DNA of 54,750 nt from Paludibacter propionicigenes. Lineage in GTDB: Bacteria; Bacteroidota; Bacteroidia; Bacteroidales; JAFGXI01. The translations under genes were made by a program, and so were the position numbers. The stretch spans positions 1 through 54,750 of the forward strand of contig DYMG01000005.1 of assembly GCA_020721655.1 (NCBI GenBank). The letters are read 5' to 3'. The notes under the pieces were generated by a model. The model was not told the DNA's origin. It saw only the letters and a list, made by a program, of their open reading frames with translations, and ran no database searches. The first letter of the stretch is position 1. Each line of letters begins with the position of its first letter. Positions 6,581-26,884 of this stretch are shown here, piece by piece.

Positions 6581-9070
6581 ATGATTAGATTTTTCCTCTT
6601 ATTTTTATCAATATATACTTTTATATTAAATGCACAAACCGGAGAAAACTGGTTTAATTATTTACAAAATAATAGAAGTACGCCTTATAAGTCTATTGAA
6701 AAAAATTTTAACATTGACAAGCACAACATATACACAAAACATTTTGAACGCTTAAAATGGAAAAATAAAAATCTACTTAACGATGATGGTAGTGTTACAA
6801 CACAAAACGAGCTTGTAATCGCTTATAAAAAGTACAAATCATCTAAAACATCAAATAATTTTGGAAATTGGTCGCCATTAGGACCTTTTTCTTGGGTAAA
6901 CGGCGACAACGGCTACAATCCGGGAAATGGAAGAATTAATGCCATTAATGTTGACCCAAACAATAGCAATATAATTTATGCTTGTGCTTCATCAGGAGGT
7001 TTGTGGAAATCTAACGATGCGGGCACAACGTGGAACACAAACACCGACAATCTCACAATTCTTGGCACTTCAGACATTGCTATAAACCCTCAAAACTCGA
7101 ACATTCTTTATCTTGCAACTGGCGACAGAGATGGCTTAGACACTTACGGCATAGGCGTTTTAAAATCTATCGACGGGGGCTCCACTTGGCAACCAACAGG
7201 TTTGCACAGCAACATTCCAACCGAAACGTTTATTGTAAATTGCTTAGCAATAAACAATAACAATCCAAACATAATTTTTGCAGGAACATCGAGTGGACTT
7301 TTTAGAACTGAAGATGCCGGCACAACTTGGCAAGAAATTATTACTTCAGGAAATTTTAAACAAATAAAAATAAATCCACTAAACCCTAACACAGTTTTTG
7401 CTGCCGATAATAAATCGTTTTTTCGTTCATATAATTCGGGCTTAACATTCGAATGTATTACCGAAGGTTTGCCTACATCTGGGAGTAGAATTGTTTTTGA
7501 TGTTACTCCGGCAGACAGTTCTTATATATATTTAATGTATGCAAATACATCTGGCAATTTTGGTGGGGTTTACCAATCTGTTGATGGTGGTAGTAGTTTT
7601 ACAATGAAGGTTGACATAAACACCATAAACCTTCTTGGATACGACATTGATGGCTTAGACGATGCAACACAAGCTTGGTACGATTTAGCTTTAGCCGTTT
7701 CTCCATCAAACAAATTAGAAATATATACTGGAGGAATAAACATATGGAAATCGACTGACGGAGGTACAAATTGGCAAAACTCAAGCAATTGGGTTTATAC
7801 AACACCTTCAACCTATTCGCATGCCGATATTCATTCACTAAATTTTTATGGCAACACTTTATACTGTGGCTCTGACGGAGGTGCATTTTCAAAAAACGGA
7901 AACGATGTTTGGTCGAACATAAGTAACGGGCTAAACATAAGCCAAATTTATAGCTTTAGCAACTCAGAATTAAATCCAAATTTAATAACAATCGGCTGTC
8001 AAGATAATGGCTCTAACCTTTTAAATTTTAACCAATGGACTCACATTATGGGTGCCGATGGTATGAAAACAATTATTGATTATTCCGACCAAACATTAAG
8101 TTTTATTACATATCAATACGGAGCAATTCTACGGTCTGACTTTTATGGAGAGTATATAACCAATATTTTCAATCCAGATGATTATTCCGAAACTAGCGAA
8201 TGGCTTACCCCTTATGTTTTATCTCATAGCACAAAATACACAATGTACGTTGGTTGCACAAACATTTACAAAACCGAAAATGGCGGAATATCTTGGGCTA
8301 AAACCACTGATTACTCTACAATAGAGTTCGATGTTATGGCGATTGCACCAACAAACGACAATATTGTTATTGCATATAACGGTAGCGTTTTTATTCGCAC
8401 AACCGATGGAGGAATTACATGGCAACCACTAAACACTCTAATTGGAGGAGCAATAACCGACATTGAATTTTCTAATACCGACGAAAATATAGTTTACGCA
8501 TGCTTAACAAGCGGACACTCCTCACGTGTTTACAAATCTGTTGATTGCGGAACAAACTTTACACAGATAACAAAAACACTTCCAGCCTTAGGCTCTAACT
8601 GCTTAGCTTTAGAGAACAACGACGTTAATGGCATTTATTTAGGTATGGAATTCGGCGTTGTTTACACAAACGACAACTTAACCGAATGGATAGATTTTTC
8701 GGAAAACTTGCCAAATGTAAAAGTAACAGACATTCAATATCTTAGTTCTATAAATAAAGTTAGACTTGCAACTTTTGGCAGAGGTGTTTGGGAGTCTGAC
8801 ACGTTTAATAGCTCTGTAAATATAGAGAGTTCTCAACTTTTTTCAAATTTTAAAATATATCCAAATCCTGCAAAAGAAAATATTAATATTGAAGCTAATA
8901 ATTTTTCTAAAATTGTTATTTACAACTCATCTGGGGTACTAATTAAAAAATTCGCCAACACATCTAACACTATAAATTTTAGCACATCTAATTTAGTTGA
9001 AGGTTTGTATTTTGTAAAAGTGATCGCCAAAAATGGAGAATACTACACAAAGAGTTTCATCAAAAATTAA
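6581..9070 (+). CDS. BNR/Asp-box (VPS10/sortilin-like) beta-propeller protein with T9SS type A CTD
   Basis: Signal peptide; many (S/T)xDxGxTW boxes (KSNDAGTTW, KSIDGGSTW, KSTDGGTNW, RTTDGGITW); ATFGRGVW; IYPNPA...GLYFVKV...KSFIKN CTD. Confidence 0.85.
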   Translation: MIRFFLLFLSIYTFILNAQTGENWFNYLQNNRSTPYKSIEKNFNIDKHNIYTKHFERLKWKNKNLLNDDGSVTTQNELVIAYKKYKSSKTSNNFGNWSPLGPFSWVNGDNGYNPGNGRINAINVDPNNSNIIYACASSGGLWKSNDAGTTWNTNTDNLTILGTSDIAINPQNSNILYLATGDRDGLDTYGIGVLKSIDGGSTWQPTGLHSNIPTETFIVNCLAINNNNPNIIFAGTSSGLFRTEDAGTTWQEIITSGNFKQIKINPLNPNTVFAADNKSFFRSYNSGLTFECITEGLPTSGSRIVFDVTPADSSYIYLMYANTSGNFGGVYQSVDGGSSFTMKVDINTINLLGYDIDGLDDATQAWYDLALAVSPSNKLEIYTGGINIWKSTDGGTNWQNSSNWVYTTPSTYSHADIHSLNFYGNTLYCGSDGGAFSKNGNDVWSNISNGLNISQIYSFSNSELNPNLITIGCQDNGSNLLNFNQWTHIMGADGMKTIIDYSDQTLSFITYQYGAILRSDFYGEYITNIFNPDDYSETSEWLTPYVLSHSTKYTMYVGCTNIYKTENGGISWAKTTDYSTIEFDVMAIAPTNDNIVIAYNGSVFIRTTDGGITWQPLNTLIGGAITDIEFSNTDENIVYACLTSGHSSRVYKSVDCGTNFTQITKTLPALGSNCLALENNDVNGIYLGMEFGVVYTNDNLTEWIDFSENLPNVKVTDIQYLSSINKVRLATFGRGVWESDTFNSSVNIESSQLFSNFKIYPNPAKENINIEANNFSKIVIYNSSGVLIKKFANTSNTINFSTSNLVEGLYFVKVIAKNGEYYTKSFIKN

Positions 9071-12431: not shown

Positions 12432-12439
12432 TAATTTTG
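12432..12439 (+). promoter_or_regulatory. Bacteroidota sigma-A -7 element for the mbx/mbs operon
   Basis: TAATTTTG matches TAnnTTTG, 24 nt upstream of ATG 12464. Confidence 0.55.
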
Positions 12440-12463: not shown

Positions 12464-12988
12464 ATGCAAGACGGAAAATCATCAATAAGCAAATTTATTT
12501 ACACATTTATTGTAGTATTTATAATTTGGAATGCATTTACTTGGCCCGGAAAATTTACAGACATACAATTAGCAGAAGTATTAACAGGCATTTTTGTAAG
12601 TATAGTTTTAGCCCTATTAACAAATAAATTCTTTTCGAGTTTTGGATTAAAAGGAATATTACCCATTAAAATTTTATACTTTGTACAATATTTATTCGTT
12701 TTTTTAATAGCACTAATAAAAGCCAACTACGATGTTGCACGAAGAGTTATTTTACCATCATTACCTATAAACCCCGGCATAATCGAATTTAAAACAAACC
12801 TTAAAAACGACTTCGCAAAAATGGTTTTAGCGAATAGCATAACACTTACACCAGGAACACTTACATTAGATGTAATTGATGACACTTTTTACGTACATTG
12901 GATTGACGTAACTACTGAAGATGCAGAACAAGCATTTAAAGAAATAGCAGAACCATTCGAGAAAATCTTACTCAAAATATACAAATAA
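12464..12988 (+). CDS. mbxA: MnhE/MrpE-like subunit (MbsA/MbxA)
   Basis: ANYDVARRV, PGII, LANSITLTPGTLT, VHWID motifs; ATG 12464 preferred over TTG 12437. Confidence 0.88.
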   Translation: MQDGKSSISKFIYTFIVVFIIWNAFTWPGKFTDIQLAEVLTGIFVSIVLALLTNKFFSSFGLKGILPIKILYFVQYLFVFLIALIKANYDVARRVILPSLPINPGIIEFKTNLKNDFAKMVLANSITLTPGTLTLDVIDDTFYVHWIDVTTEDAEQAFKEIAEPFEKILLKIYK

Positions 12989-12999
12989 AACTTTACAGT

Positions 13000-13257
13000 A
13001 TGCAAATTGTATTAATAACAGTATTATCACTAATGACTCTCGGGTTGTTTTTTAGTTTCCTGAGATTTATAAAAGGACCTACAGCCGCCGACAGAACAGT
13101 TGCTTTAGACACAATGTCTGTTATAGCTACAGCTGGATTAGTTCTGTTGGGACTAATGTTTGACCGATACATTTACATTGATGTAGCACTAATATATGCC
13201 GTACTTGGGTTTATTGGTGTAATAGTAATTGCACGTTTTATAGAAAAAGCATTATAA
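13000..13257 (+). CDS. mbxB: MnhF/MrpF-like subunit (MbsB/MbxB)
   Basis: RFIKGPTAADRTVALD, IDVALIYAVLGF; three TM helices. Confidence 0.9.
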   Translation: MQIVLITVLSLMTLGLFFSFLRFIKGPTAADRTVALDTMSVIATAGLVLLGLMFDRYIYIDVALIYAVLGFIGVIVIARFIEKAL

Positions 13258-13610
13258 TGGAAATATTAAAATACATAGGATATGGACTTCTAATAATAGG
13301 CGGAATATTCTTATTTTTAGGAGCATTGGGTATTTACCGAATGCCTGACTTGTACAACAGACTACAAGCAGGGACAAAAGCAAGTACAATAGGTGCTATG
13401 AGCGTAATCTTAGGAGTTGGTTTTATTCAACCAGATTGGCTTATAAAAACACTTATAATTGTTGTGTTTATTGCAGTTGCAAACCCACTTAGTTCTCATG
13501 CTATTGGCAGAGCAGCATACAAAGCAGGATTAAAACCAATTATGAAAACTAAAATGGACGCTTACGAAAAAACACAAAATATTCAAGAAACAAAGGAGGT
13601 TAAACTATGA
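13257..13610 (+). CDS. mbxC: MnhG/MrpG-like subunit (MbsC/MbxC)
   Basis: GIYRMPDLYNRLQAGTKASTIG, NPLSSHAIGRAAY. Confidence 0.9.
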   Translation: MEILKYIGYGLLIIGGIFLFLGALGIYRMPDLYNRLQAGTKASTIGAMSVILGVGFIQPDWLIKTLIIVVFIAVANPLSSHAIGRAAYKAGLKPIMKTKMDAYEKTQNIQETKEVKL

Positions 13611-13885
13611 TAGTTTACGTTATTATTTTTAGTATTTTATCAATACTTCTTATAGCTTCTGCAATTTATGCAGTTGTTCAAAAAGACTTACTAATAGCTG
13701 TAATTTCAACAGGCGTAATAAGTCTTATTCTTTCTGTATTTTTTTACTTAATGCACGCTCCAGACGTTGCCCTTACCGAAGCTGCTATTGGAATTGCCCT
13801 AACAACAATAATTTTTGTTATAACAATTAGAAATACAACCAGAAACGAAGATGAATCAATCGATAATAACCTTGATAAATTTTAA
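13607..13885 (+). CDS. mbxD: DUF4040 / MrpA C-terminal-like subunit (MbsD/MbxD)
   Basis: APDVALTEAAIG motif; three TM helices. Confidence 0.88.
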   Translation: MIVYVIIFSILSILLIASAIYAVVQKDLLIAVISTGVISLILSVFFYLMHAPDVALTEAAIGIALTTIIFVITIRNTTRNEDESIDNNLDKF

Positions 13886-13888
13886 AAA

Positions 13889-14608
13889 ATGAGAAAAGTA
13901 TTCGTAATTATTTTATTAATTTTAGTTGGTTATTTCTTAACAAACACATTTAGCCTAATAACATTTGGAGAAAATAGAATAGGAAATACTTCGGAAGAAA
14001 AAAATGTTGCAGCCTATTACTTAAACAACACAAAAGAAAAAACCTCGGTAGCAAACGTTGTTACAGCAATTGTAGTAAATTACAGAGGCTTCGATACATT
14101 AGGCGAAGTAACCGTATTATTCTTAGCAACAACAGGATTAGGAAGCATTCTGTTTCGCCGAAAAGAAGACGAAGACCAAATTGAAAGAATTTCAAAACCA
14201 TCTTCATCTTTAGTTCAAACAGGCTCTAGAATTCTATTCCCACTAATTGCCCTTTTAGGAATTTATGTTTTTATTCACGGACACTTAACTCCAGGTGGAG
14301 GCTTTCAAGGAGGTGCTATTATTGCAACCGGATTCTTATTAATGCTTATATCATACAAAAATTTTAAAGCCGGACACACAATGCTAATTTGGGTTGAAAG
14401 TTTAGCTGGAATTACATTTGTAACAATAGGTCTTTGGGGATTATTAACCAGTGGTTCTTTCCTAGAAAACACATTGCCAGGAGGAGAACTAAACAATTTA
14501 ATTAGCGGAGGAATTATACCAATAATTTATATAGCAGTAGGATTTAAAGTTGCAGCCGAACTAACAGGCGTTTTAGACATATTATTAAACATTAAACCTA
14601 AAAAATAA
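13889..14608 (+). CDS. MnhB/MrpB-like subunit (MbsE, MbhE+F-type fusion)
   Basis: NVVTAIVVNYRGFDTLGEVTVLF and HGHLTPGGGFQGG in one polypeptide. Confidence 0.88.
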   Translation: MRKVFVIILLILVGYFLTNTFSLITFGENRIGNTSEEKNVAAYYLNNTKEKTSVANVVTAIVVNYRGFDTLGEVTVLFLATTGLGSILFRRKEDEDQIERISKPSSSLVQTGSRILFPLIALLGIYVFIHGHLTPGGGFQGGAIIATGFLLMLISYKNFKAGHTMLIWVESLAGITFVTIGLWGLLTSGSFLENTLPGGELNNLISGGIIPIIYIAVGFKVAAELTGVLDILLNIKPKK

Positions 14609-14988
14609 TGTACAATTTAGAACTACAAAATAATTTAATAACCACATCAGTTTATGGTTCTGCAATTGCCCTTATTTTAATAGGACTGTATGCAGTTTTA
14701 GTTAAAAAAAACCTAATAAAAATTGTAATCGGACTATCTATTATTGATGCAGGAATACACCTGCTTTTTGTTGCAATTGGCTACATAAAAGGATTTACAG
14801 CACCAATATTTTCGCCTGGCAGCGAAAATTTAGCCAACAAAATGGTCGATCCAGTACCTCAAGCATTAGTACTAACAGCAATTGTTATTGGCTTTGCAAC
14901 AACTGCCGTTGCACTATCATTAGTTATACGATTGTACAAACATCATAATACAGCAAGAATTGATCAAATAAAATCTTTAAAATGGTAA
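14608..14988 (+). CDS. mbxG: MnhC/MrpC (NuoK-like) subunit (MbsG/MbxG)
   Basis: KKNLIKIVIGL, DPVPQALVLTAIVIG. Confidence 0.92.
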   Translation: MYNLELQNNLITTSVYGSAIALILIGLYAVLVKKNLIKIVIGLSIIDAGIHLLFVAIGYIKGFTAPIFSPGSENLANKMVDPVPQALVLTAIVIGFATTAVALSLVIRLYKHHNTARIDQIKSLKW

Positions 14989-16475
14989 TTAGTCCTGTTC
15001 ATTATATTGCGGTGCCTCTATTAGCGGCTTTTTTAATACCGTTATTAAGTAAGTTCATTCATAAAGAACTTGCTCGAATTGTTCCCGGAATAGTATTCTT
15101 ATACTCTATTTTTATATCGATAACATTAATGCTTCAAATTGGCGATAAAGGTATAATATCCGAAGTTATTGCAGGTTGGCAAGCCCCTTGGGGAATAAAC
15201 TTAGTTTTCTCACCATTTAGCGGATTTTTAGCCAGCTTAATGTCTATTATTGGATTCTTAATATGGCTATACAGTTATAACTTTAAGAAAATAGACAAAG
15301 AACAATCTCAAAAATACCATATTTTACAAATGATGATGGTAACCGGAGCTATTGGTATAGTACTTACCGGCGATATTTTCAACCTATTTGTTTTTATGGA
15401 AATAACAGCTATCACAGCCTATTCTTTAACCTCATTTTATAGAGAACGAGACGGAGCAGAAGCCGGATTCAAATACCTACTAATTGGTAGTTTTGCCTCA
15501 GTTCTTATTTTATTAGCCATAATGATACTATACACACAATTAGGCACTCTAAATATGGCTGAAATTGCTCAAAAATCGCACTTAATACCAACATCTTTAA
15601 AAACAACAATTATAGTCTTATTTTTAGTAGGGTTTGGAATTGAAGCAGAAATGTTCCCTCTCAACGGCTGGGCACCAGACGCTTACTCACAATCACCCGG
15701 ACCAATTGGTGCAGCCTTCGCTGGAATTGTTGTAAAAGCCGGAGTTTACGCCCTTGTAAGAGTTATTTTTACTTTATTTGATATTCACGGAGCCTACGAT
15801 TTTTTAATTTACGGAGGTTTAATAACAATGATTATTGCAGAAACATCAGCCTTAGCTCAAACAAACCTAAAACGAATGCTCGCCTACTCAAGTATAGGAC
15901 AAATGGGGTTTGTACTTATGGCTTTTGGAATTGGAACACACCAAGCAATTGTTGGTGCTCTTTTCCTAATGTTTAACCACGCTATAATAAAAAGCCTATT
16001 ATTTATGAGCGGTAGCTACCTAACATACAACTCATTAACAAAACAAATATCTGCATTAAGCGGATTAGGAAAAAAACTACCATTAGTCTCAATATTATTC
16101 GGAATAGGAGCTTTTGCAATTGTTGGGCTACCTCCTTTCTCAGGATTTTGGAGCAAATTATATGTTCTATCTGCAGCTGCCGACAAAAATATGTTATTAC
16201 TTATAATGACTATATTAGCAGTAAGTATTGTTGAAATTATATACTATTTTAGAGTTGTAAGCACACTATATTACGGTAAACAAAACCCAGAAATTGAAAT
16301 TCAAAAACCATCAATAAATGCAATGGTTTCAATGATAGCTCTCGGAATTACAATACTTGTAGTAGGTGTTTACCCTGATGTTATAACAAATCTACTTGAA
16401 AACGCAGCAACAGCACTTACAGATAAAGCAACATATATACAAAGCGTACTAACTCAAAATTTGCCAATTAATTAA
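14982..16475 (+). CDS. mbxH: MrpD/NuoN-like proton-translocating subunit (MbsH/MbxH)
   Basis: TGDIFNLFVFMEI, AGFKYLLIG, FPLNGWAPDAY, KRMLAYSSI, GLPPFSGFWSK. Confidence 0.9.
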   Translation: MVISPVHYIAVPLLAAFLIPLLSKFIHKELARIVPGIVFLYSIFISITLMLQIGDKGIISEVIAGWQAPWGINLVFSPFSGFLASLMSIIGFLIWLYSYNFKKIDKEQSQKYHILQMMMVTGAIGIVLTGDIFNLFVFMEITAITAYSLTSFYRERDGAEAGFKYLLIGSFASVLILLAIMILYTQLGTLNMAEIAQKSHLIPTSLKTTIIVLFLVGFGIEAEMFPLNGWAPDAYSQSPGPIGAAFAGIVVKAGVYALVRVIFTLFDIHGAYDFLIYGGLITMIIAETSALAQTNLKRMLAYSSIGQMGFVLMAFGIGTHQAIVGALFLMFNHAIIKSLLFMSGSYLTYNSLTKQISALSGLGKKLPLVSILFGIGAFAIVGLPPFSGFWSKLYVLSAAADKNMLLLIMTILAVSIVEIIYYFRVVSTLYYGKQNPEIEIQKPSINAMVSMIALGITILVVGVYPDVITNLLENAATALTDKATYIQSVLTQNLPIN

Positions 16476-16492
16476 TATAAACTACCCTCAAT

Positions 16493-18364
16493 ATGAATAG
16501 TTTCTTTTTAATATTATTGATACTTTTAGCTGGAGCAGCAATTTCTTTTGCTCTCGGAAAAATATCTTCTATAATAAGTGGTACTGTAGCATTCTTATCA
16601 ATAGCTTCAGCTTCAGTATTATTTTTTACGCAACTAAAAAACAATACATATATAGAATTTCCACTAGGGGAAATTCAACTACAATGGGGTATAGATAGTT
16701 TTGGCTACATATTTGCATTAATTGTCTTAGGTTTAGGAAGTTTAGCTTCACTATACTCGATTTCATACATGCAAAATAAAGAACGAACTGGAATTTTTTA
16801 TTTCAACTTTGTTCTTGTTATCACTTCAATGGTTGGAATTATTTTCAGTCAAGACTTTATTTCATTTTTCATTTTTTGGGAAATAATGACTTGGTCATCG
16901 TACCTACTAATTATCTTCAACAAAAAAGATGTAAAAGAAATAGGCGTAAAATATATGATATTCAGTGCAATTGGGGCATATTCAATGCTTACTGCAATTG
17001 TAATGATAAAAGGAAATTACAACACATTTTTAATTTCTGATGCAATACAAGCCGGAGCTTTCAATTTTACAAATAATGAATATATACCAATTTTACTATT
17101 AATAGGATTTGCAGTAAAAGCCGCAACAATGCCATTACACGTTTGGGCTCCTAAAGCCTACTCAAACTCACCAATGTCGTTTACTGTAATTTTTTCTGGA
17201 GCAATGTCTAAAATGGGCGTACTTGGTATGGCTCTTGTGTTAGTTAGAATTTTCACATTTAACGCTAATAACGAAGCAATTTTACCCAACTTCTCCCCAA
17301 TTATTTTACAACAAACACTCGCTTGGCTTGGAGCTATAACAGCAGTTATTGCAACACTATACGCATTAATGCAAGACGACGCAAAAAAACTTTTAGCTTA
17401 CTCTTCAATAGCACAATTAGGCTATATTACAGTAGGTTTAGCAATTGGCACAAAACTTAGCGTAATGGCAGCACTTTTTTTAGCAATTGTTCACGGAATA
17501 TTTAAAGGTGCACTTTTTATGGTTGCCGGCGCTGTTGAACGACAAGCAGGAACTACAGATATGACAAAAGTATCTGGATTAATTAGAAAAATGCCTTTCA
17601 CATTTTTTACCGCATTAATTGCAATTATTGCATTAGCAGGCATTCCTCCACTCGGCGGCTTTGTTGGAAAATGGATGCTTTACGAATCTTTAATAACAGA
17701 ATCGAACAGCTATTTCTTAGTAATTTTAGTATTCTTTTCAAGCACATCGGCATTCCTTTACTGTTACCGCTTCCTTTTCGGACTTTTCCTAGGACAAGAA
17801 GAAGAAGCTACAAAAGACGTTAAAGAAGCCCCAATTACAATGATAATACCAATGCTAATACTATCGGTACTTTTGATGGTTACAGGTGCTTACCCTGGAA
17901 TTTTATTCGACCCAATTGCAAAAGGTATGGAAACTATAGGGTTCAACAACGTTACTTGGGATATGTCTGTTCTAGGAAATATTTGGGGCAACTCAGTAAA
18001 TATGATTTACGTTTGGCTAACAATAGTAATAGTGTTTATAGCAGCTTTCATTTTCCTAACACTTAAAGGATTAAAAGGAACACGTTATGTTAGCACAAAA
18101 GACATCTCTACTTCTGGAGAAATACCATTAGAACACGAAAATTTAACATTTCAAATAAACTTCTTTCAACCTTTTAGGCGTGCCGCAGCCCCTATGTACA
18201 AACGCAGTATGGATAAAATTTGGAATGAAATAGGTTCCGGATTAGAATCTTTATTCAATTTTACACGAAAAATATACACCGGAAATGGACAAACTTATGC
18301 AATATTTGTTATTGCGTTTCTTGTTCTTATGTTGTTATTAAAAGATACATTGTTTTTAAATTAA
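16493..18364 (+). CDS. Second antiporter-like subunit with long C-terminal extension (MbsH'/MbxH')
   Basis: FFIFWEIMTWSS, KAATMPLHVWAP, KKLLAYSSI, GIPPLGGFVGKW; C-terminal amphipathic helix ending YTGNGQTY plus a TM helix. Confidence 0.88.
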   Translation: MNSFFLILLILLAGAAISFALGKISSIISGTVAFLSIASASVLFFTQLKNNTYIEFPLGEIQLQWGIDSFGYIFALIVLGLGSLASLYSISYMQNKERTGIFYFNFVLVITSMVGIIFSQDFISFFIFWEIMTWSSYLLIIFNKKDVKEIGVKYMIFSAIGAYSMLTAIVMIKGNYNTFLISDAIQAGAFNFTNNEYIPILLLIGFAVKAATMPLHVWAPKAYSNSPMSFTVIFSGAMSKMGVLGMALVLVRIFTFNANNEAILPNFSPIILQQTLAWLGAITAVIATLYALMQDDAKKLLAYSSIAQLGYITVGLAIGTKLSVMAALFLAIVHGIFKGALFMVAGAVERQAGTTDMTKVSGLIRKMPFTFFTALIAIIALAGIPPLGGFVGKWMLYESLITESNSYFLVILVFFSSTSAFLYCYRFLFGLFLGQEEEATKDVKEAPITMIIPMLILSVLLMVTGAYPGILFDPIAKGMETIGFNNVTWDMSVLGNIWGNSVNMIYVWLTIVIVFIAAFIFLTLKGLKGTRYVSTKDISTSGEIPLEHENLTFQINFFQPFRRAAAPMYKRSMDKIWNEIGSGLESLFNFTRKIYTGNGQTYAIFVIAFLVLMLLLKDTLFLN

Positions 18365-18405
18365 ATTTGATTATAAAAATAATTTCATAAATCATAAATT
18401 ACAAA

Positions 18406-19350
18406 ATGGAAGATTTAGCTATTAAAATATTAGGTGCAGTACTAACAACAATAATGGCATTTACTGTTGGAATGTTTTATGGCGGTTTTGTTCGTAAACT
18501 TACCGCCCGAGTTCAAAACAGAAGAGGTCCTGTTGTTTATCAAAATTTTATCGATTTATTAAAATTACAAAGCAAAACAACAAATATCGCACACGGATTT
18601 ATGCATCACATGGCTCCTATTTGGATGATAATAGCATCTTTAACAACTTTAATGTTTTTACCAATCCTAAACGGCAACTTGTGGTTCCCAAACATATCAT
18701 TCCACGGCGACTTAATTTTTCTCTTATATATGATGGTATTTGGTTCATTGGGTATGGCATTGGGTGCCGGACAAACCGGAAATCCAAACTCTGCAATAGG
18801 AGTAACCAGAGGACTTAGCCAAATGGTTGGTTTTGAAATACCTTTCGTTATGTCATTAATTGCATTAATGATACAATACAAAACTACATCAATACAAGAC
18901 ATTATGATTGCTCAAAACGAATCTGGAATTTGGAATATGTTTTCAAATCCTTTCGCTTTTTTAGCTGCATTATTTGCAATGTTTGGTATGTTTCGTTACT
19001 CACCTTTCGATATTGTAGGTGCTCCTGCAGAACTTGCTTCAGGTCCAGTTTCAGAATTTGGCGGAAAATATTTAGGAACAATGATGACCGCAAACTCAAT
19101 ATTTAGCTTCTTTAAATTAACACTTTACGTAAATTTATTTATGGCAGGTGCCGGAAATATTAATGATGTAGGAATTGTTGCTACACTAATAGCCATAGTA
19201 ATATTATTGATTAAAACATTTGCACTATATATGGTACCAGTCTTTTATGGCTGGGTTAGCCCTCGCTACAGAACCGAACAAGCAATACGTTATTTTTGGG
19301 CTTGGCCTTCAGCTCTCGGATTAATTGGCATTGTTTGGGCACTTATTTAA
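18406..19350 (+). CDS. mbxM: NuoH-like membrane anchor subunit (MbsM/MbxM)
   Basis: RKLTARVQNRRGP, QNFIDLLKL, PFDIVGAPAELASGPVSEFGG, PRYRTEQ. Confidence 0.9.
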   Translation: MEDLAIKILGAVLTTIMAFTVGMFYGGFVRKLTARVQNRRGPVVYQNFIDLLKLQSKTTNIAHGFMHHMAPIWMIIASLTTLMFLPILNGNLWFPNISFHGDLIFLLYMMVFGSLGMALGAGQTGNPNSAIGVTRGLSQMVGFEIPFVMSLIALMIQYKTTSIQDIMIAQNESGIWNMFSNPFAFLAALFAMFGMFRYSPFDIVGAPAELASGPVSEFGGKYLGTMMTANSIFSFFKLTLYVNLFMAGAGNINDVGIVATLIAIVILLIKTFALYMVPVFYGWVSPRYRTEQAIRYFWAWPSALGLIGIVWALI

Positions 19351-19385
19351 CTTAAAGTTTTTATTTATTATCGATTTTTTGAAAT

Positions 19386-19937
19386 ATGACAATAACAGAA
19401 AATAATATTAAACAACCAATAGGAGAATACATACAAAATTGGGCAAGAAAACACTCTCTTTTTGTATTAGCTTACGGAACAGGTTGTGGTGCAATTGAAA
19501 TTCCACCAACAATGACCTCTCGTTACGATGCCGAAAGATTTGGAATTAGAGGTGCTGCTACTCCTCGCCAAGCCGATGTATTACTTATTACAGGGTACTT
19601 AGCAACTAAATCACTAAAAAGAGTAATTCGTGTTTACGAACAAATGCAAGACCCAAAATATGTTATTGCATTTGGCTCTTGTACAATAAACGGAGGCATG
19701 TATTACGATAGCTATAACACAATAAACGCTTTAGACAGATACATTCCTGTTGACGTTTACATAAATGGCTGTATGCCCCGTCCAGAAGCTGTTATATCAG
19801 GATTTGTTGAACTACAAAAACAAATAGCATCAGGAAATGCATACAACGCTACAAAATACAAAGAAAACCTTGAATGGTATAGAGAAAACCAAAAGAAAAT
19901 AATTAAAAATTGGCGTATGCCCGACTATAACTGGTAA
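19386..19937 (+). CDS. mbxJ: NuoB-like Fe-S subunit (MbsJ/MbxJ), only three Cys
   Basis: GTGCGAIEIPPTMTSRYDAERFG, PRQAD, GSCTINGG, GCMPRPE; GCG replaces the NuoB CC pair. Confidence 0.9.
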   Translation: MTITENNIKQPIGEYIQNWARKHSLFVLAYGTGCGAIEIPPTMTSRYDAERFGIRGAATPRQADVLLITGYLATKSLKRVIRVYEQMQDPKYVIAFGSCTINGGMYYDSYNTINALDRYIPVDVYINGCMPRPEAVISGFVELQKQIASGNAYNATKYKENLEWYRENQKKIIKNWRMPDYNW

Positions 19938-19983
19938 AACACAACAGTAACTTATTTAATTTTTTTCAGAAAAAAAATATAAA

Positions 19984-20559
19984 ATGGACAATTTACAAAT
20001 TGAAAACAACATACTCGAAACAATAAAAACTGCTTTTAAAGTAGAAGGTAAAGTTGTAAGAGAAAAAAGAGTTGAAATAACAGCACATAAACAACTTATT
20101 TCAAGTATTTTATTGTTTGCAAAAAATCAACATAATTATATTCATCTAAACCATATTACTTGCGTAGATTGGATTGAAGATGGAGAATTTGAAATAAACT
20201 ACATAATTTGGTCTCCAACTACCAAAAACACCCTAATAATAAAAACTAGAATTTCTCGCGAAAATGCCCAAATGGAAAACATTGATAATATTTGGGACCA
20301 AGCAAACACTTACGAAAGAGAAATGAGAGAAATGTACGGCATTGAATTTCCTGGATTAATTGGCGAACACGAATTTATTCTTGAAGATTGGGACGAAATG
20401 CCTCCTATGAGAAGAGATTTTGACACATTAGAATACGCAACAAAAACATTTTACCAACGACCAGGCAGAGAAGACGCTAAAGACGTTAGAGAAGAATTAA
20501 CTAAACAAAGCGGAGAGGAAATACCTGAATTCGCTAAGAAATATTCGAGAGAGAAATAA
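19984..20559 (+). CDS. mbxK: NuoC-like subunit (MbsK/MbxK)
   Basis: ITCVDW, YEREMREMYGIEFPG, FILEDW...PPMRRDF. Confidence 0.9.
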   Translation: MDNLQIENNILETIKTAFKVEGKVVREKRVEITAHKQLISSILLFAKNQHNYIHLNHITCVDWIEDGEFEINYIIWSPTTKNTLIIKTRISRENAQMENIDNIWDQANTYEREMREMYGIEFPGLIGEHEFILEDWDEMPPMRRDFDTLEYATKTFYQRPGREDAKDVREELTKQSGEEIPEFAKKYSREK

Positions 20560-21659
20560 TGGAAAAAGAAACCACACTATATATTGGACCTCAACACCCT
20601 GGTATAACCGGGAATATGATGGTTAAACTAAAAGTAACAGGCGATACTATTTCTAGTGCTTCTACTCACGTTGGATACCTACACCGTGCATTCGAAAAAC
20701 TTATAGAAAGAAGAAACTGGCTACAATCATTCACAATACTTTGCCGTTTTTGCGTTCCAGAACCAGACCCAATGGAACTTACTTACGCAAGAGCTGTAGA
20801 AGAAATTGAAGGACGAGAAGTTCCCGAAAGAGCGGAATATATTCGCACAATTGTAATGGAATTAGCCCGTATTCAGTCATTTATGCTTTGGTACGGCGGA
20901 CAATCAGGCTCGTCTGGATTATACCTTGTTGGACAATGGTCGGTTGGAGATAGAAACTACATTCTAGACTTATTTGAAGACCTTACAGGCGGTAGAGTTT
21001 ACCACATGTATATATGGCCCGGAGGAGTTCGTAGAGATTTACCAGAAGGCTGGAAAGATAAAGCATTAAAAACAATGGATTATCTAGAAAAACGCCTCGA
21101 TGAATACGACAAACTTATGTTCGACAGTACAATATTCCAAAAAAGAGCTCAAGGTGTTGGCATAATACCAAAAGACAAAGCAATTGAATGGGGAGTTGTA
21201 GGTGCACCACTTAGAGGAACAGGAATAAAACACGACGTTAGAATAGACGAACCATATTGTGCATACGATAAATTAAATTTTATAGTACCAACACAAGAAG
21301 GTGGAGATGTTTGGGCTCGTGCATTAGTTCGCCGACAAGAAATTCGTCAATCAATAAGTATTATACGCCAAGCATTAGATAAAATGCCCGCAGGCGAATT
21401 TTACAACAAAATACCAAACCCTATGAAATGGTCTATTCCTGCTGGCTCAGCTTGGGTAAAAACAGAAAGCGTAAGAGGTGAAGTTGGTTTCTATGTTGAA
21501 AGCGATGGCTCTAACAAACCTCGACGAGTTCATGTAAAAGGTGCTGCATACACTCACGGAGTTACCGTTTTAGAAAAAATATTAGTTGGACAAAACATTG
21601 CCGATGTTTCTTTTATTTTGAACTCATTAGGCGTTTGTCCTCCCGAAATTGAAAGATAA
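20559..21659 (+). CDS. mbxL: NuoD-like subunit without NiFe site (MbsL/MbxL)
   Basis: IGPQHPG, GYLHRAFEKL, RFCVPEPD, C-terminal CPPEIER; lacks the RxCxxC and DPCxxC hydrogenase motifs. Confidence 0.9.
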   Translation: MEKETTLYIGPQHPGITGNMMVKLKVTGDTISSASTHVGYLHRAFEKLIERRNWLQSFTILCRFCVPEPDPMELTYARAVEEIEGREVPERAEYIRTIVMELARIQSFMLWYGGQSGSSGLYLVGQWSVGDRNYILDLFEDLTGGRVYHMYIWPGGVRRDLPEGWKDKALKTMDYLEKRLDEYDKLMFDSTIFQKRAQGVGIIPKDKAIEWGVVGAPLRGTGIKHDVRIDEPYCAYDKLNFIVPTQEGGDVWARALVRRQEIRQSISIIRQALDKMPAGEFYNKIPNPMKWSIPAGSAWVKTESVRGEVGFYVESDGSNKPRRVHVKGAAYTHGVTVLEKILVGQNIADVSFILNSLGVCPPEIER

Positions 21660-21668
21660 TAGAATTAA

Positions 21669-21697
21669 TTATCGGTAAAAATTATATTTATCGATAA
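21669..21697 (+). other. Intergenic stem-loop between mbxL and the mbxN fusion gene
   Basis: TTATCGGTAAA-7 nt-TTTATCGATAA; 11 bp stem with one G-U pair and no U-tract. Confidence 0.35.
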
Positions 21698-21728
21698 ATA
21701 AAAAATATTAAATAAAAAATATTAAAGA

Positions 21729-23522
21729 ATGAACTTTTTCGATTTAAAAGGATTATTGCAACCATTAGGAGCAGTTAAGCAGTTAGGTAAAAAACCTCAC
21801 ACTATTAATTATCCTTACGAAACAAAACGAACTGCCGACCGTTATCGTGGATTACATTATAACGATTTAGAAGTTTGTATTGGTTGCGGAAATTGTTCTA
21901 CAATTTGTCAAAATGCAGCTATTGATATGATTAATATTGATGGCATTACAGCAAAAAATGGCGATAGCGGATTACGTCCACGCGTAGATAACGGAAGATG
22001 TTGTTGGTGTGCACTTTGCGTTGAAGTTTGCCCAACAGGCTCTCTTAGCCTTACAAAAGATTACATTTACGTTACTCCAGATGCAAACGCATTCTTATGG
22101 ACACCGGGAGTTAGCAACCCCGATGCAAAAAACAATATATCGTTCACAAGCGATACAAATTTATCACTTTCAATGTACCAAAGAGTTCCAATGCGTGAAC
22201 TTGATGGAATGGAAAGAGTAAAATCTTTTGCAGAAGTTGTTTTAGGATACTCGGAAGAAGAAGCTCGTGCCGAAGCTCAAAGATGTATATCTTGCGGATT
22301 ATGTTCAAATGTTTGTCCAGACCACATGCACATTCCAGAATACATAAATGCAATTGCACAAGGTAACGATAACGATGCACTAAAAATTATATACGACAAC
22401 AACCCTTTCCCAGAAATGTGCGGAAAAGTTTGTACTCGCCGTTGCGAAGATGTTTGTGCAATTCAAGTTCGCGGTGAAGCAGTTGCTATACGCTGGCTAA
22501 AACGTTATGCTACAGAAACTGCACCAACAGCTCAAAAAATTAAAGACATTGTAAACCCAATAATTGCCGAACCAAACGGAAAAACTGTTGGTATTATAGG
22601 AGCTGGTCCTGCAGGATTAACCGCTGCATACTATTTAGCTTTAAGAGGTTTCGATGTTACTATTTACGAAGCACAAAGTTATGCCGGAGGTATGACTATG
22701 TTTGGAATACCTAAATACCGCTTCCCATTAGACAGCGTAAAAAAACAAGTTGAATATATGGAAAGCATTGGGGTTAAAATAAAATATAACACCAAAGTTG
22801 GACGAGATATTTCTTTTGAAGAAATGCACACTGCTTACGATGCAATTTTTGTTGGTATAGGTTTCCAAAAAGCATGGACTTTAGGCATTGAAAATGAAGA
22901 TATTCCGGGCTGTATTGCAGCTGTTGATTATCTAAACATAATAAATCGTGGCGATAGTTTTGATGTTGGAAAAAAAGTAGCCGTAATTGGTGGTGGTAAC
23001 GTAGCTATTGATGGAGCCAGAGTTTCTGCACGTTATGGAGCCGAAGTAACAATACTTTATCGTCGTAGAATTTCTGAAATGCCTGCCGATTGGGAAGAAA
23101 TTGAAGGTGCTGAACACGAAGGCGTTCACATTGCTATTCAAACAATTCCTACAAGAATTATTAAAGGTGAAAACGGAAAAGTTAGCGGTATAGAATACTT
23201 AAAAGCCGAAATGATTGCCGACGAAAATGGCGGAAGACCACGCCCTGTGGCTATTGAAGGTAGCGAAACAATTTTAGAATGCGACACAGTAATTGGTGCA
23301 ATTGGTCAAGAAGCAGACTATTCTTGGCTTCCTGAAAGTTTTAAAGCCAAAATTGAAATAAAACGAGGAATGATGATTGTTACCAACGAATTTAATCAAA
23401 CTGGCGACCCAAAAGTTTTTGCCGGTGGAGATGCCGTAAACAAAACTGCCGATGCTATTTCTGCTATTGCTGATGGTTATATGGCTGTAAAAGGTATTTC
23501 TAAGTTTTTATTGGGAAATTAA
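21729..23522 (+). CDS. MbsN/NuoI-like 2x[4Fe-4S] domain fused to a GltD/SudA/NfnB-like FAD/NAD(P)H oxidoreductase
   Basis: TINYPYE...RYRGLH, CIGCGNCSTIC and CCWCALCVEVCP; then EAQRCISC, CGKVCTRRCEDVC, GAGPAG, GGGNVAIDGAR, YRRR, VFAGGD. Confidence 0.9.
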   Translation: MNFFDLKGLLQPLGAVKQLGKKPHTINYPYETKRTADRYRGLHYNDLEVCIGCGNCSTICQNAAIDMINIDGITAKNGDSGLRPRVDNGRCCWCALCVEVCPTGSLSLTKDYIYVTPDANAFLWTPGVSNPDAKNNISFTSDTNLSLSMYQRVPMRELDGMERVKSFAEVVLGYSEEEARAEAQRCISCGLCSNVCPDHMHIPEYINAIAQGNDNDALKIIYDNNPFPEMCGKVCTRRCEDVCAIQVRGEAVAIRWLKRYATETAPTAQKIKDIVNPIIAEPNGKTVGIIGAGPAGLTAAYYLALRGFDVTIYEAQSYAGGMTMFGIPKYRFPLDSVKKQVEYMESIGVKIKYNTKVGRDISFEEMHTAYDAIFVGIGFQKAWTLGIENEDIPGCIAAVDYLNIINRGDSFDVGKKVAVIGGGNVAIDGARVSARYGAEVTILYRRRISEMPADWEEIEGAEHEGVHIAIQTIPTRIIKGENGKVSGIEYLKAEMIADENGGRPRPVAIEGSETILECDTVIGAIGQEADYSWLPESFKAKIEIKRGMMIVTNEFNQTGDPKVFAGGDAVNKTADAISAIADGYMAVKGISKFLLGN

Positions 23523-23542: not shown

Positions 23543-23595
23543 TAAACTAAAAAATCCATAACTCAGAAAAACTGATTTATGGATTTTTTAGTTTA
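23543..23595. terminator. Bidirectional intrinsic terminator between the mbx operon and the convergent MBL gene
   Basis: 19 bp inverted repeat TAAACTAAAAAATCCATAA/TTATGGATTTTTTAGTTTA plus an inner TCAG/CTGA stem. Confidence 0.8.
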
Positions 23596-24381
23596 CCCCG
23601 ACTTAGATTTTGTGTTTACATCTACGCTTAAGCCATCATAAGCCAAAAAAACATTTTTTGGAAGTTCTTTTTCAACCTCATCTGCTAATCCTAATGAATG
23701 ACTAATATGAGTTAAATAAGCCTTTTCCGGCTTTATTTCTTCAATAAGTTTTAGTGCTTCAGATAATGTAAAATGAGATATGTGCTCCTCTTTTCTTAGG
23801 GCATTAATTATCAACACCTTAACTCCTTTAATTTTATCTTTTTCAATTTCCGAAATATAGTTGGCATCAGTTATATAAGCTATATTTCCAATTTTATATC
23901 CTAAAATTGGAAGTTTTAAATGCATAACTCTAATTGGGATAATTTCAACATCAAATATTTTAAAAGTATTTTCATCAATAATATTAATATTTATTTTTGG
24001 CAATCCCGGATATTTACTCTCTGAAAAAACATATAAATATTCATTTTTCAATGAATCTGAAACTCTTTTTTCGCAATAAACCTCCATTGGTTTTTTCTGA
24101 ATGTAATTGAAAGCTCTAACATCGTCGAGCCCACCGGTATGGTCTTTATGTTCGTGTGTAAAAATAATTGCATCGAGTTTTTGCACTTTTTCTCGCAACA
24201 TTTGTTGACGAAAATCGGGACCCGAATCAATTACAAAAGTATGGTTATTAATTTCAATTAAAACAGAAGTGCGTAATCGTTTATCTTTTGGGTTTGTTGA
24301 TTGACAAACATTGCAATTGCAACCAATTATTGGCACTCCTTGAGAAGTTCCTGTTCCTAAAAAAGTTAATTTCATTATCAT
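23593..24381 (-). CDS. MBL-fold metallo-hydrolase (PhnP/YycJ-like phosphodiesterase)
   Basis: FLGTGTSQGVP, CNCNVC Zn site, IDSGPDFRQQ, THEHKDH, THISH, AYDG. Confidence 0.9.
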   Translation of the reverse strand: MIMKLTFLGTGTSQGVPIIGCNCNVCQSTNPKDKRLRTSVLIEINNHTFVIDSGPDFRQQMLREKVQKLDAIIFTHEHKDHTGGLDDVRAFNYIQKKPMEVYCEKRVSDSLKNEYLYVFSESKYPGLPKININIIDENTFKIFDVEIIPIRVMHLKLPILGYKIGNIAYITDANYISEIEKDKIKGVKVLIINALRKEEHISHFTLSEALKLIEEIKPEKAYLTHISHSLGLADEVEKELPKNVFLAYDGLSVDVNTKSKSG

Positions 24382-25150: not shown

Positions 25151-26884
25151 TTATTTCACTACAAATTTGTTTGTTATTATTGAGTTATTGTAAGATATGC
25201 TAATTAAATAAATTCCTTTATTTAGGTTGTAATTTTGTAAAGTTATCGAATTTTCGCCTTTTTCAAAATAAATATTAGTATTTAGCACTTGCTGTCCGAG
25301 CATATTTGTAATAATAACATTTGAGTTAAAATTGGTGTTAGAAAGCACTTTTAAATAATTTTGTGTATTAAATATTTTTAAACTTATAGCATTTTCTGAG
25401 GTAATATTGGTTGTGTTTAAAACATAGAAACTCCAATAACCTTCTGGTGCAGGCATTGGGCGTACTTGAGTTTTTCCAGAATTAGCGTTTGCCTGAATAT
25501 AGTAATAAACGCGAGTTCCCGATGTTTGAACGGGAATGTATCCTGTCCATTCGTTTAGTGTTGTGTTTGTAAAGTTCATTATTACAGATTGGTATGGTTC
25601 TAACAGGTCGGTTTTATAGTATAATGTTGCCGAATTTATTCCTGAGCGGTGCATTATTTTAGATTTTACTTCATAATTTGTGTAAATATTATCGGTATTA
25701 GACAAGCGTTTGTGAGAAATTAAGAGTGGATCAGTTGTAGCAATTTCGTGAGTAATGCAATGTATAGCTCCGCTTGAAAAGATTGGTCCAGAATCGTCGT
25801 CGCAATCAACTCCAACTACGTTGTATCCTGGCATTGCTTCTCTATATATTCTTAGGGCTGTTGTATCGTATTGTTGGTAATATGTTGGAACAATTATGGT
25901 TTTGTTTATAATTAGTGAGTTTGTATAAGTGTAGTAATATCCACTGTTCCAACTACCATCGGGGTAATCTCCGTTTAAATCTGGTGGGCTGGGAATGCGA
26001 ACAACTTTATACGCATCGCCAAAAACTGAATTTTCGTTTGCTAAAACATTTTGCAAGTTTGCTTCAATTTGTGGTCCATCGGCAATTCCAGATGGGTATT
26101 CTGCGCAAAGAATTGTTTCTTCGTCTAACATTTTCATGTGCATATCTATGTGGTGAATTCCATCGTAAGGAAGAACTGGAAATTTTATAAATTTATTTAT
26201 TCCCATAAAGTGCTTCATAATTGTATCAATTTCGGCTTCTGTTTTTGGTGTTACGTCGTAATCGTTGTTTATTTGGTTTTCTTCGAGAATAAGTTCTTCG
26301 CAAAAGGCTGTTCCAAAGCCATCGGTAAAGTAGTTCCCACCGGTATTAACTAAGTCGGTAGGTGCTTGTGTTGTTTGGTAAAGCGGAATGTTAAAAGCGC
26401 CGGAAATTGGGCTTGCCGAGGTGTCGTCGCGTGGACGAGGGCGGTTATAAATCCAATCTAAAAATAAAAGCGAATCCACATTATTAGTGTAAATATTATT
26501 TACTGCATAATCTCTAATCCAAACGGAGTTTGTACCGTAATTTATAAATTTAACATTTGTAATATCAACATTTTCGGTTTGTAAATAATTTTTTGCACTT
26601 GCCGAGTCGGTTGTTAAAATATACACTTTACATTCTTCTACTGCTGCACGTACTATTTCTGTTAATTGTGGTTTGTAGCTTATCCAAGAGATTACTATTG
26701 CTTGCATTTCTTCCCATTCGGCAACACTTCTAACAGCCGATGCTGGGGGCAATGTTATTCCAACTGATGAAATATTTTTTACATAATTTGGCAAATATGC
26801 TCGTTCTTGTTTTGTCATATAGTTTGGCAAATACTGAGCATTTAATATGGTTATTGAAAAAACTAGAATTATAATTAATCTCAT
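25151..26884 (-). CDS. Secreted agmatine/peptidylarginine deiminase family protein with T9SS CTD
   Basis: AEWE, WIRD, TGGN, HHIDMH, YTNSL, GAIHCIT catalytic set; signal peptide; CTD-like ITNMLGQQV...KGIYLI...KFVVK. Confidence 0.85.
   Translation of the reverse strand: MRLIIILVFSITILNAQYLPNYMTKQERAYLPNYVKNISSVGITLPPASAVRSVAEWEEMQAIVISWISYKPQLTEIVRAAVEECKVYILTTDSASAKNYLQTENVDITNVKFINYGTNSVWIRDYAVNNIYTNNVDSLLFLDWIYNRPRPRDDTSASPISGAFNIPLYQTTQAPTDLVNTGGNYFTDGFGTAFCEELILEENQINNDYDVTPKTEAEIDTIMKHFMGINKFIKFPVLPYDGIHHIDMHMKMLDEETILCAEYPSGIADGPQIEANLQNVLANENSVFGDAYKVVRIPSPPDLNGDYPDGSWNSGYYYTYTNSLIINKTIIVPTYYQQYDTTALRIYREAMPGYNVVGVDCDDDSGPIFSSGAIHCITHEIATTDPLLISHKRLSNTDNIYTNYEVKSKIMHRSGINSATLYYKTDLLEPYQSVIMNFTNTTLNEWTGYIPVQTSGTRVYYYIQANANSGKTQVRPMPAPEGYWSFYVLNTTNITSENAISLKIFNTQNYLKVLSNTNFNSNVIITNMLGQQVLNTNIYFEKGENSITLQNYNLNKGIYLISISYNNSIITNKFVVK

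Follow-up and report, generated by a model that had tools for sequence, protein, structure and literature searches.

Gene organization of the locus

The window analysed here, a stretch of 54,750 nucleotides from an assembly labelled Paludibacter propionicigenes (GCA_020721655.1, contig DYMG01000005.1, G+C ~30%), contains thirteen open reading frames (ORFs), all on the plus strand and spanning positions 12464 (ATG) to 23522, which we firmly assign to the family of the membrane-bound reductase of sulfane sulfur (MBS) of Pyrococcus and its bacterial relatives (Mbx); the predicted subunits would form a single membrane enzyme. The co-directional and tightly packed set of thirteen genes that the original prediction had described is borne out by the ORF list, as the intergenic gaps do not exceed 69 nt and five small overlaps occur within the run. 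With Pfam and NCBIfam profiles the order MrpE, MrpF, MrpG, MbhD/DUF4040, MbhE plus MnhB, and MrpC/NuoK-like is recovered, followed by two Proton_antipo_M proteins (497 and 623 aa), NuoH, NuoB, NuoC, NuoD, and a 597-aa protein. The identities originally given to the first twelve genes hold, whereas the thirteenth gene, taken for a plain NuoI, codes for a NuoI–NfnB-like fusion instead. NuoA, NuoJ, NuoE, NuoF, and NuoG are, as had been claimed, missing from the operon in scans of its proteins with both profile collections. The features are:

12432..12439, plus strand, candidate Bacteroidota-type −7 box TAATTTTG, read directly, 25 nt 5′ of the ATG
12464..12988, plus strand, subunit A, MrpE/MbsA-like, 174 aa from the ATG (PF01899 MNHE, E 2.5e-40)
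13000..13257, plus strand, subunit B, MrpF-like, 85 aa (PF04066, E 2.1e-18)
13257..13610, plus strand, subunit C, MrpG-like, 117 aa (PF03334, E 2.5e-25; NF009314 120 bits, cut-off 102)
13607..13885, plus strand, subunit D, MbhD/DUF4040, 92 aa (PF13244 MbhD, E 1.5e-20)
13889..14608, plus strand, subunit E, MbhE and MnhB domains, 239 aa (PF20501, PF04039)
14608..14988, plus strand, subunit G, MrpC/NuoK-like, 126 aa (PF00420, E 5.6e-28)
14982..16475, plus strand, subunit H, antiporter-like, 497 aa (best PDB match 6u8y_H 335.5 bits, MbhH 237.0)
16493..18364, plus strand, subunit H′, antiporter-like with C-terminal extension, 623 aa (6u8y_X 295.2 bits, MbhH 194.3)
18406..19350, plus strand, subunit M, NuoH-like membrane anchor, 314 aa (6u8y_M 176.4 bits, MbhM 93.6)
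19386..19937, plus strand, subunit J, NuoB-like, proximal [4Fe-4S], 183 aa (6u8y_J 221.9 bits, next best 144.5)
19984..20559, plus strand, subunit K, NuoC-like, 191 aa (PF00329, E 6.5e-23)
20559..21659, plus strand, subunit L, MbsL-type NuoD homologue, 366 aa (6u8y_L 351.3 bits, Nqo4 248.6, MbhL 149.0)
21729..23522, plus strand, subunit N fusion, 597 aa (Pfam Fer4 families, Fer4_20, Pyr_redox_2)
23543..23595, no strand assigned, hairpin, likely bidirectional terminator (dG −25.6 kcal/mol, z −10.3; 0/200 shuffles fold equally well)

Related loci were collected by searching one genome for each of 185,579 species. Among the matches listed, 597 of 600 stretches encode a relative, and the comparisons below use the best 80 of these at least 597 related loci. 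The PDB comparison covered L, J, M, H, H′, and the N-terminus of N, and for all six of them the Pyrococcus furiosus MBS entry 6U8Y is the top match. Together with the Thermococcus loci, which have the same gene order, this supports the homology to MBS/Mbx that had been proposed. Subunit A occupies the first position of related loci, where its matches are 36–57% identical.

In the two antiporter-like subunits the charged axis is kept in part. Subunit H has the glutamate and the lysine equivalent to MbsH E138 and K250, subunit H′, which aligns with 6u8y_X end to end (residues 2–613), has those equivalent to MbsH′ E128 and K248, and the positions of MbsH H330 and MbsH′ H336 are both occupied by leucine, that is, four of the six named residues are retained. 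A histidine four residues and a lysine eight residues on from the replaced axis histidine are still present in both H and H′ (14982-18364).

Subunits L and J

Subunit L carries the sequence RFCVPEPD (Cys65) and ends with GVCPPEIER (Cys360) and thus contains both signatures, RxCVPEPD and CPP(D/E)I(D/E)R, on which the original prediction had relied. The two cysteines align with MbsL C85 and C385 and are what is left of the four NiFe cysteines. In agreement with the claimed absence of NiFe motifs, CxxC pairs are absent from the L sequence and HypD was not found in the genome, which is 92% complete. In the alignment Thr17 and Val66 of L stand at the positions of Nqo4 His38 and Tyr87, which we take to be the quinone head-group ligands of complex I.

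Subunit J has three cysteines in total (34, 99, 129), its cluster loop aligns gap-free with that of MbsJ and is of equal length, and the position of the non-ligating MbsJ Cys25 is Gly31. The proximal [4Fe-4S] cluster is thus predicted to be held by three cysteines on a short loop, with one iron left free, as has been described for MBS (Yu et al. 2020, PMC7684303). Among 72 readable J subunits the motif is CTGCG, the Thermococcus form, in 39 and GTGCG, the form found here, in 33, with identical spacing; in these 33 the fourth, non-ligating cysteine is naturally missing and the catalytic three-cysteine cluster is kept. This cluster and the whole equivalent of the Q-module are conserved across all 72.

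The position of L among its homologues was examined with two trees, which carry SH-aLRT support alone, contain long branches among unnamed representatives, and use Thermococcus loci from metagenome-assembled genomes (MAGs) as substitutes for Pyrococcus. The first, a quick IQ-TREE run, had 102 rows (74 of the 80 loci, L of the window, the other L of the genome, and 26 unnamed representatives at 50% clustering, seven of them hydrogenase-like by their CxxC motifs), and loci with a cut L ORF or an L shorter than 330 aa were excluded. Here every MbsL-type row, including four Thermococci, fell into one clade (SH-aLRT 96). For the second tree, also of 102 rows, seven NuoD genes of the same order (TIGR01962) were added and one ORF-less locus and seven near-duplicate rows were left out. 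The smallest clade with both the window L and the Thermococci then comprises 60 tips (SH-aLRT 89) and includes none of the seven NuoD rows and none of the seven hydrogenase-like rows, while the NuoD rows form a clade of their own (100). Constraining the window L to NuoD costs 209 log-likelihood units and is rejected by the approximately unbiased (AU) test (p-AU 5.8e-40). L branches with the Thermococci and not with the NuoD or the hydrogenase-like rows. The original prediction, which a branching of L with NuoD or the group 4 hydrogenases would have refuted, therefore withstands this test. By its sequence and its place in the trees L is of the MbsL type, neither a NuoD nor a hydrogenase large subunit.

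Fusion of subunit N with an NfnB-like flavoprotein

Subunit N consists of an MbsN/NuoI-like domain with two predicted [4Fe-4S] clusters (aa ~8–120), a linker, and an NfnB/GltD-like module (aa ~150–597). The top PDB match of residues 9–117 is 6u8y_N (MbsN, 81.8 bits), followed by NdhI with 54.1 bits, whereas residues 151–594 match the NfnB chain 5jca_L with 298 bits, 4ylf_B with 282, GltD with 219, and dihydropyrimidine dehydrogenase (DPD) with 151; with NfnB-type PDB chains the C-terminal ~450 aa score 282–310 bits. The module is recognized by PF14691 (Fer4_20, E 2.9e-28) and PF07992 (Pyr_redox_2, E 2.5e-30). Like NfnB, GltD, and the N-terminal half of DPD these 450 residues combine an eight-cysteine Fer4_20 domain with Rossmann folds for FAD and NAD(P)H. 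In contrast to NfnB, the module is covalently joined to a NuoI-like domain, and an NfnA partner was not seen in the operon by the Pfam scan, the rest of the genome not having been searched for NfnA. The profile NF010590 ("putative oxidoreductase"), which describes the same architecture in full length, scores 636 bits with N over profile positions 9–606 of 611 (cut-off 946).

Four motifs of four cysteines each lie at positions 50–60, 91–101, 186–196, and 231–243, and the Rossmann motifs are GAGPAG at 291 (FAD) and GGGNVA at 421 (NAD(P)H), the latter being followed by TILYRRR. The 16 cluster cysteines do not vary among 51 aligned N fusions, in which the two GxGxx[GA] motifs are likewise conserved. 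Owing to the fused NfnB-like domain, NAD(P)H and not ferredoxin alone is the likely redox partner of N, which in this respect departs from the free-standing, ferredoxin-accepting N of MBS. A basic stretch after the second Rossmann strand is, as a rule, a sign of NADPH preference, and from the basic YRRR stretch N would be expected to prefer NADPH over NADH.

Homologues of N with at least 70% identity fall into at least 120 clusters. Those with a name appear in public databases as "FAD-dependent oxidoreductase" or "glutamate synthase small chain". By NCBIfam, L would be given the name "NADH-quinone oxidoreductase subunit D" (415 bits, cut-off 360) and J the name "NuoB". The mislabelling by annotation pipelines that had been foreseen does occur, and our results bear on the annotation of loci that are now named Mrp, NuoB/D, and "glutamate synthase small chain". 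At the spirochaete-type loci L022, L025, L028, and L074 the fused N ORFs are longer, measuring 749–776 aa from stop to stop, and this hints at a further domain.

Distribution of related loci

About 20 labels at the level of the phylum occur in the best 80 loci, among them Bacteroidota, Ignavibacteriota, Spirochaetota, Campylobacterota, Pseudomonadota, and Thermotogota, and further Planctomycetota, Bacillota, Synergistota, Thermoplasmatota, and Thermococci; the labels of some MAGs appear unreliable. The gene order A-B-C-D-E-G-H-H′-M-J-K-L-N is near-universal in these loci and is also found in the Thermococcus loci L071 and L078, the identity of the single subunits to the Thermococcus loci being ~31–56%. 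At the loci L024, L026, L033, and L038 of Campylobacterota and Chromatiaceae, which have an unfused N, the A gene sits after N, and in the Thermotogae locus L050 the block J-K-L-N is placed ahead of A...M.

Subunit N is fused in 61 of the 80 loci and unfused in 14; four have no N on the available DNA and in one N is cut by the contig end. The fused form is thus the usual bacterial form among these loci. Of the 14 unfused cases four are from Thermococci, four from Campylobacterota, two from DHVE2/Thermoplasmata, two from Clostridia, and one each from Chromatiaceae and Synergistota, and when both states are placed on the L tree at least four state changes are needed. Relatives in Thermotogae, which had been postulated, were found at L050, L056, and L059, all with N fused in the same manner. 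The genome studied here is from an uncultured organism; cultured carriers include Halanaerobium saccharolyticum (L068, fused N), Thermotoga, and Clostridium tepidiprofundi (L066, unfused N).

The occurrence in a Bacteroidota genome, to which the original prediction had pointed, is not exceptional, since 32 of 201 genomes in a sample of the order, spread over its families, have an MbsL-type gene, although in a sample of the phylum the count is three of 401 (E <= 1e-80, the source genome counted). Of the 32 carriers in the order, 13 have the type of the window (at least 74% identity) and six have both types described in the next section.

Operons of this kind are known from bacteria. Degli Esposti (2015, PMC4758237) describes a gltD-type flavoprotein in the mbx-like operons of Thermotoga and proteobacteria, which share with our locus the thirteen-gene combination of Mrp subunits and Q-module and in which the gltD-related protein is either attached to NuoI or stands in its place. 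Compared with the Mbx of Thermotogota, the window L belongs to a different clade of the L tree, and the clade of Bacteroidales and Melioribacter has the single-cysteine J motif. A literature search (Mbx/MBS with Bacteroidota, Ignavibacteria, Melioribacter, Caldithrix, and NfnB) returned no description of the complex in Bacteroidota; the match for Mbx and Ignavibacteria (PMC4053972) concerns a six-gene Hyf-like cluster, which is another system. The locus thus joins a known and widespread bacterial branch of the MBS/Mbx family, whose role is a predicted one.

A second operon in the source genome

The source genome (2.49 Mb, 119 contigs) contains a paralogous operon from A to N in identical order on contig C67 (16619-27395; locus L091:2096-12905). 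In this operon H and H′ are merged in a single ORF of 1041 aa and N is again fused to an NfnB-like domain. Its subunits are 27–65% identical to those of the window (L 48%), and its L falls into another clade together with rows of Chlorobiota and Lentimicrobiaceae. That the C67 gene is a canonical NuoD was considered and rejected, as by the tree it is a second MbsL-type gene. Genomes of the same genus and of the same family also have both operon types. Apart from the two MbsL-type genes, no NuoD-family genes were found with PF00346 in the genome at its completeness of 92%. TIGR01962 at E <= 1e-100 likewise gave no match in the source genome or a family mate, and it gave matches in 12 of 29 other sampled genomes of the order. 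In some of the Bacteroidales, which are mesophilic, two complexes of this kind take the place of complex I. The genome further encodes RnfC, NqrA, pyruvate:ferredoxin oxidoreductase (PFOR), and an [FeFe] hydrogenase adjoining NuoF-like genes. A search of the 92%-complete assembly for MenA (TIGR00751) gave no match.

Neighbouring genes at related loci

The 90 nearest flanking proteins of 49 related loci were surveyed. Nine of them are dihydroorotate dehydrogenase (DHOD)-like proteins of the PRK07565 type. Rex-like regulators lie directly upstream at five loci (L034, L048, L055, L057, L081) and rubrerythrins downstream at five (L017, L039, L045, L085, L086), the latter having also been remarked on by Degli Esposti (2015, PMC4758237). 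Crp-like regulators lie divergently upstream at five loci of the C67-type clade (L058, L060, L062, L063, L065), and two flanking proteins are ArsR-like regulators. At two loci from Thermotogota (L056:12871-15119, L059:13802-15217) the fused N is directly followed by separate genes of NfnA-like and/or NfnB-like type.

A tblastn search of the 80 loci placed a DHOD-like gene beside the operon and on the same strand in ten of them, four times upstream of A and six times downstream of N, and all ten have a fused N (L011, L012, L014, L018, L027, L028, L058, L061, L062, L065). Such a gene also follows the C67 operon (L091:12966-13970; NF005741 389 bits, cut-off 303), and a second copy on contig C109 (L092:2351-3331) is followed by an FNR-like gene. 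As the family occurs in 166 of the 201 genomes of the order, the co-occurrence is not specific and the adjacency alone is suggestive.

Comparison with known systems

With the MBS of Pyrococcus (6U8Y) the locus shares the thirteen subunits in the same order, two vestigial cysteines in L, a short loop with three cysteines in J, and two antiporter-like subunits of which one has a long C-terminal extension. It differs from this archaeal enzyme in the fusion of N to an NfnB-like NAD(P)H flavoprotein, in the replacement of MbsJ Cys25 by glycine and of the H330/H336 equivalents by leucine, and in its bacterial host of ~30% G+C, and its activity is a predicted one. MBH (PDB 6CFW) and the group 4 [NiFe] hydrogenases likewise combine an Mrp-derived arm with a J/K/L/M/N module. 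However, MBH has one antiporter-like subunit where the locus has two, the L of the locus lacks two of the four NiFe cysteines and scores 351 bits with MBS as against 149 with MBH, and HypD was not detected in the genome. Complex I (NDH-1) has homologues of NuoB, C, D, H, I, K, and L/M/N in common with the locus, and in both an NAD(P)H-oxidizing flavoprotein would tip the Fe–S chain. In contrast to complex I, whose NuoEFG module uses FMN, the dehydrogenase module of the locus is NfnB-like and would use FAD; NuoA, NuoJ, and the quinone ligands are missing and the layout of the membrane arm is that of Mrp. The comparison bears on the question how complex I-like enzymes gained their dehydrogenase modules.

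Proposed mechanism and its alternatives

For bacterial Mbx the role of a ferredoxin:NADP+ oxidoreductase was proposed, and its archaeal counterpart was subsequently found to act as a sulfane reductase. Tentatively, we favour that the complex is an NAD(P)H:sulfane-sulfur oxidoreductase which pumps protons or sodium ions. An Mrp-derived ion-translocating arm (A–G, H, and H′) would be joined through M to a peripheral arm of J, K, L, and N. Electrons would pass from NAD(P)H to FAD and to the two [4Fe-4S] clusters of the NfnB-like domain, from there to the two clusters of the MbsN-like domain, and finally to the three-cysteine proximal cluster in J, which amounts to a chain of five Fe–S clusters. 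In the J/L/M pocket polysulfide, as the sulfane-sulfur compound, would be reduced, and this reduction would drive the export of H+ or Na+; the reaction may also run backwards. The reduction of sulfane sulfur, the direction of electron flow, the partner NAD(P)H, and the pumping of ions are all inferences from the predicted proteins.

Several observations point in this direction. The three-cysteine cluster and the MbsL-type pocket, together with the loss of the NiFe and quinone ligands, argue for MBS-like chemistry at the pocket, from which the coupling in the MBS family originates according to Yu et al. (2020, PMC7684303). The fused flavoprotein in turn would place NAD(P)H at the far end of the five-cluster chain, and the Rex-type regulators directly upstream in five of the 49 loci, which sense NADH, support this link. 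The glutamates and lysines retained in both antiporter-like subunits support a function as a pump. In Thermotoga maritima mbxA is reported to be 4.4-fold up on S0 (PMC9431562).

Several points weigh against the proposed function. The standard potential of NAD(P)H is −320 mV and that of polysulfide about −260 mV. The weak point of our proposal is that on these potentials the electron transfer yields ~60 mV, which is little for the pumping of ions unless the cellular ratios help. The axis histidines H330 and H336 are both replaced by leucine, and no rhodanese, TusA, DsrE, or molybdopterin protein is present among the 90 flanking proteins of the 49 loci. An NSR-type partner was not found with TIGR03385 (88 bits, cut-off 579), a probe that is unsuitable here since none of 14 controls reached the cut-off. 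S0 and thiosulfate are reported to have given no growth stimulation in Melioribacter roseus (PMC3534657); the operon is present in the Melioribacter-labelled loci L018 and L020, which are MAGs and not the type strain. Finally, MbsL C85 and C385 and MbsJ C25 are dispensable in Pyrococcus (PMC7684303), and the conserved cysteines therefore say little about the substrate.

If the proposed function is correct, the enzyme may be reversible in sulfur oxidizers, where sulfide or polysulfide would reduce NAD(P)+ driven by the ion gradient, and the fusion would be a second, independent way to fit a pyridine-nucleotide input module to a complex I-like machine. The DHOD-like FMN protein may then extend this module in clades of the FCB group. 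It is possible, though not probable, that the capture of NfnB-like proteins by MBS-type complexes represents a widespread, molybdopterin-independent respiration of sulfane sulfur linked to NAD(P)H. The question bears on the energy conservation of anaerobes in sulfidic habitats.

A different function, which we consider doubtful, is that of an ion-translocating ferredoxin:NAD(P)+ oxidoreductase, as was first proposed for Mbx. In this scheme, to which the same doubt applies, ferredoxin reduced by PFOR would feed the Fe–S chain, NAD(P)+ would be reduced at the fused flavoprotein, and ions would be exported in an Rnf-like manner. PFOR is indeed encoded in the genome, the driving force would be greater than for the transfer from NAD(P)H to polysulfide, and the surveyed neighbours include Rex-like regulators upstream at five loci and NfnA/NfnB-like genes downstream at two Thermotogota loci and no sulfur genes. 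This role was given to bacterial Mbx-like operons with the gltD-related flavoprotein by Degli Esposti (2015, PMC4758237), and a preprint on Mesotoga (10.1101/322537), which reports weak expression of Mbx on thiosulfate, treats Mbx as an NADP:ferredoxin oxidoreductase. However, a route from ferredoxin to the flavin along N alone would bypass the J/L/M pocket at which coupling originates (PMC7684303), the conserved three-cysteine cluster and Q-module equivalent of the 72 J subunits are hard to explain without a reaction there, and the enzyme would duplicate Rnf, which the genome already has.

The fused N together with the separate PRK07565 DHOD-like FMN protein would provide the three modules of DPD, namely the 8Fe ferredoxin domain, the GltD-like domain, and the DHOD-like barrel. 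It is conceivable, if unlikely, that an organic substrate at FMN, NAD(P)H, and the membrane arm are linked in this way. GltD-like subunits normally pass electrons to an FMN partner, for example, in GltBD and DPD/PreTA. The gene of the DHOD-like protein lies beside the operon in ten of the 80 loci, all with fused N, as well as after the C67 operon. On the other hand, the operon of the window has no such neighbour, the C109 copy lies beside an FNR-like gene instead, most of the 166 genomes of the order (out of 201) with this family are without the complex, and outside the FCB group the gene is adjacent in none of the loci.

Quite improbable in our judgement is an alternative NAD(P)H:menaquinone oxidoreductase, that is, a substitute for complex I with a different dehydrogenase module. 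NCBIfam does name L and J as NuoD and NuoB, the only NuoD-family genes found by PF00346 in the genome are the two of the MbsL type, and TIGR01962 (E <= 1e-100) has no match in this genome or its family mate as against 12 of the 29 others of the order. Yet Thr17 and Val66 occupy the positions of Nqo4 His38 and Tyr87 (the quinone ligands), a grouping with NuoD is rejected by the AU test, a search of the 92%-complete genome gave no MenA, and Nqr is available for the transfer of electrons from NADH to quinone. Two unrelated systems, with an Mrp antiporter lying next to part of a complex I, or else a [NiFe] hydrogenase of group 4, as the automatic names would have it, are very improbable given the operon-like gaps and overlaps, the conservation of the thirteen-gene order as a block in related loci, the presence of two of the four NiFe cysteines only, and HypD not having been found in the genome.

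Candidate control signals and genomic surroundings

In front of the ATG at 12464 lies the sequence TAATTTTG (12432-12439), which fits TAnnTTTG, presumably the −7 form of Bacteroidota. It agrees with the −7 box that had been reported and is a candidate promoter. An alternative TTG start, which is open in the same frame at 12437, falls within this box. A scan with consensus promoters and terminators found fewer sigma-70-like sites than in shuffled sequences and is uninformative for a Bacteroidota promoter. The hairpin at 23543-23595 (dG −25.6 kcal/mol, z −10.3) probably corresponds to the terminator noted after the operon and separates its stop codon from a convergent gene at 23593-24381; the consensus scan missed it because the stem is A+T-rich.

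The genes flanking the operon code for a STAS protein, two proteins with metallo-beta-lactamase fold, and PAP2, and have no evident tie to it. Twenty sequencing runs are listed for the locus, all of DNA and none of RNA, with the labels cave, biofilm, and soil metagenome. C-terminal sorting domains of the type IX secretion system are found in a homologue of the Porphyromonas-type peptidyl-arginine deiminase (25151-26884) and in a BNR/sortilin-repeat protein (6581-9070), which together with the nearest relatives in Bacteroidales fits a Bacteroidota host. Farther downstream, a full-length DUF6029 protein (31192-32838, E 5e-173) adjoins a protein of the Omp28 family (30312-31172).

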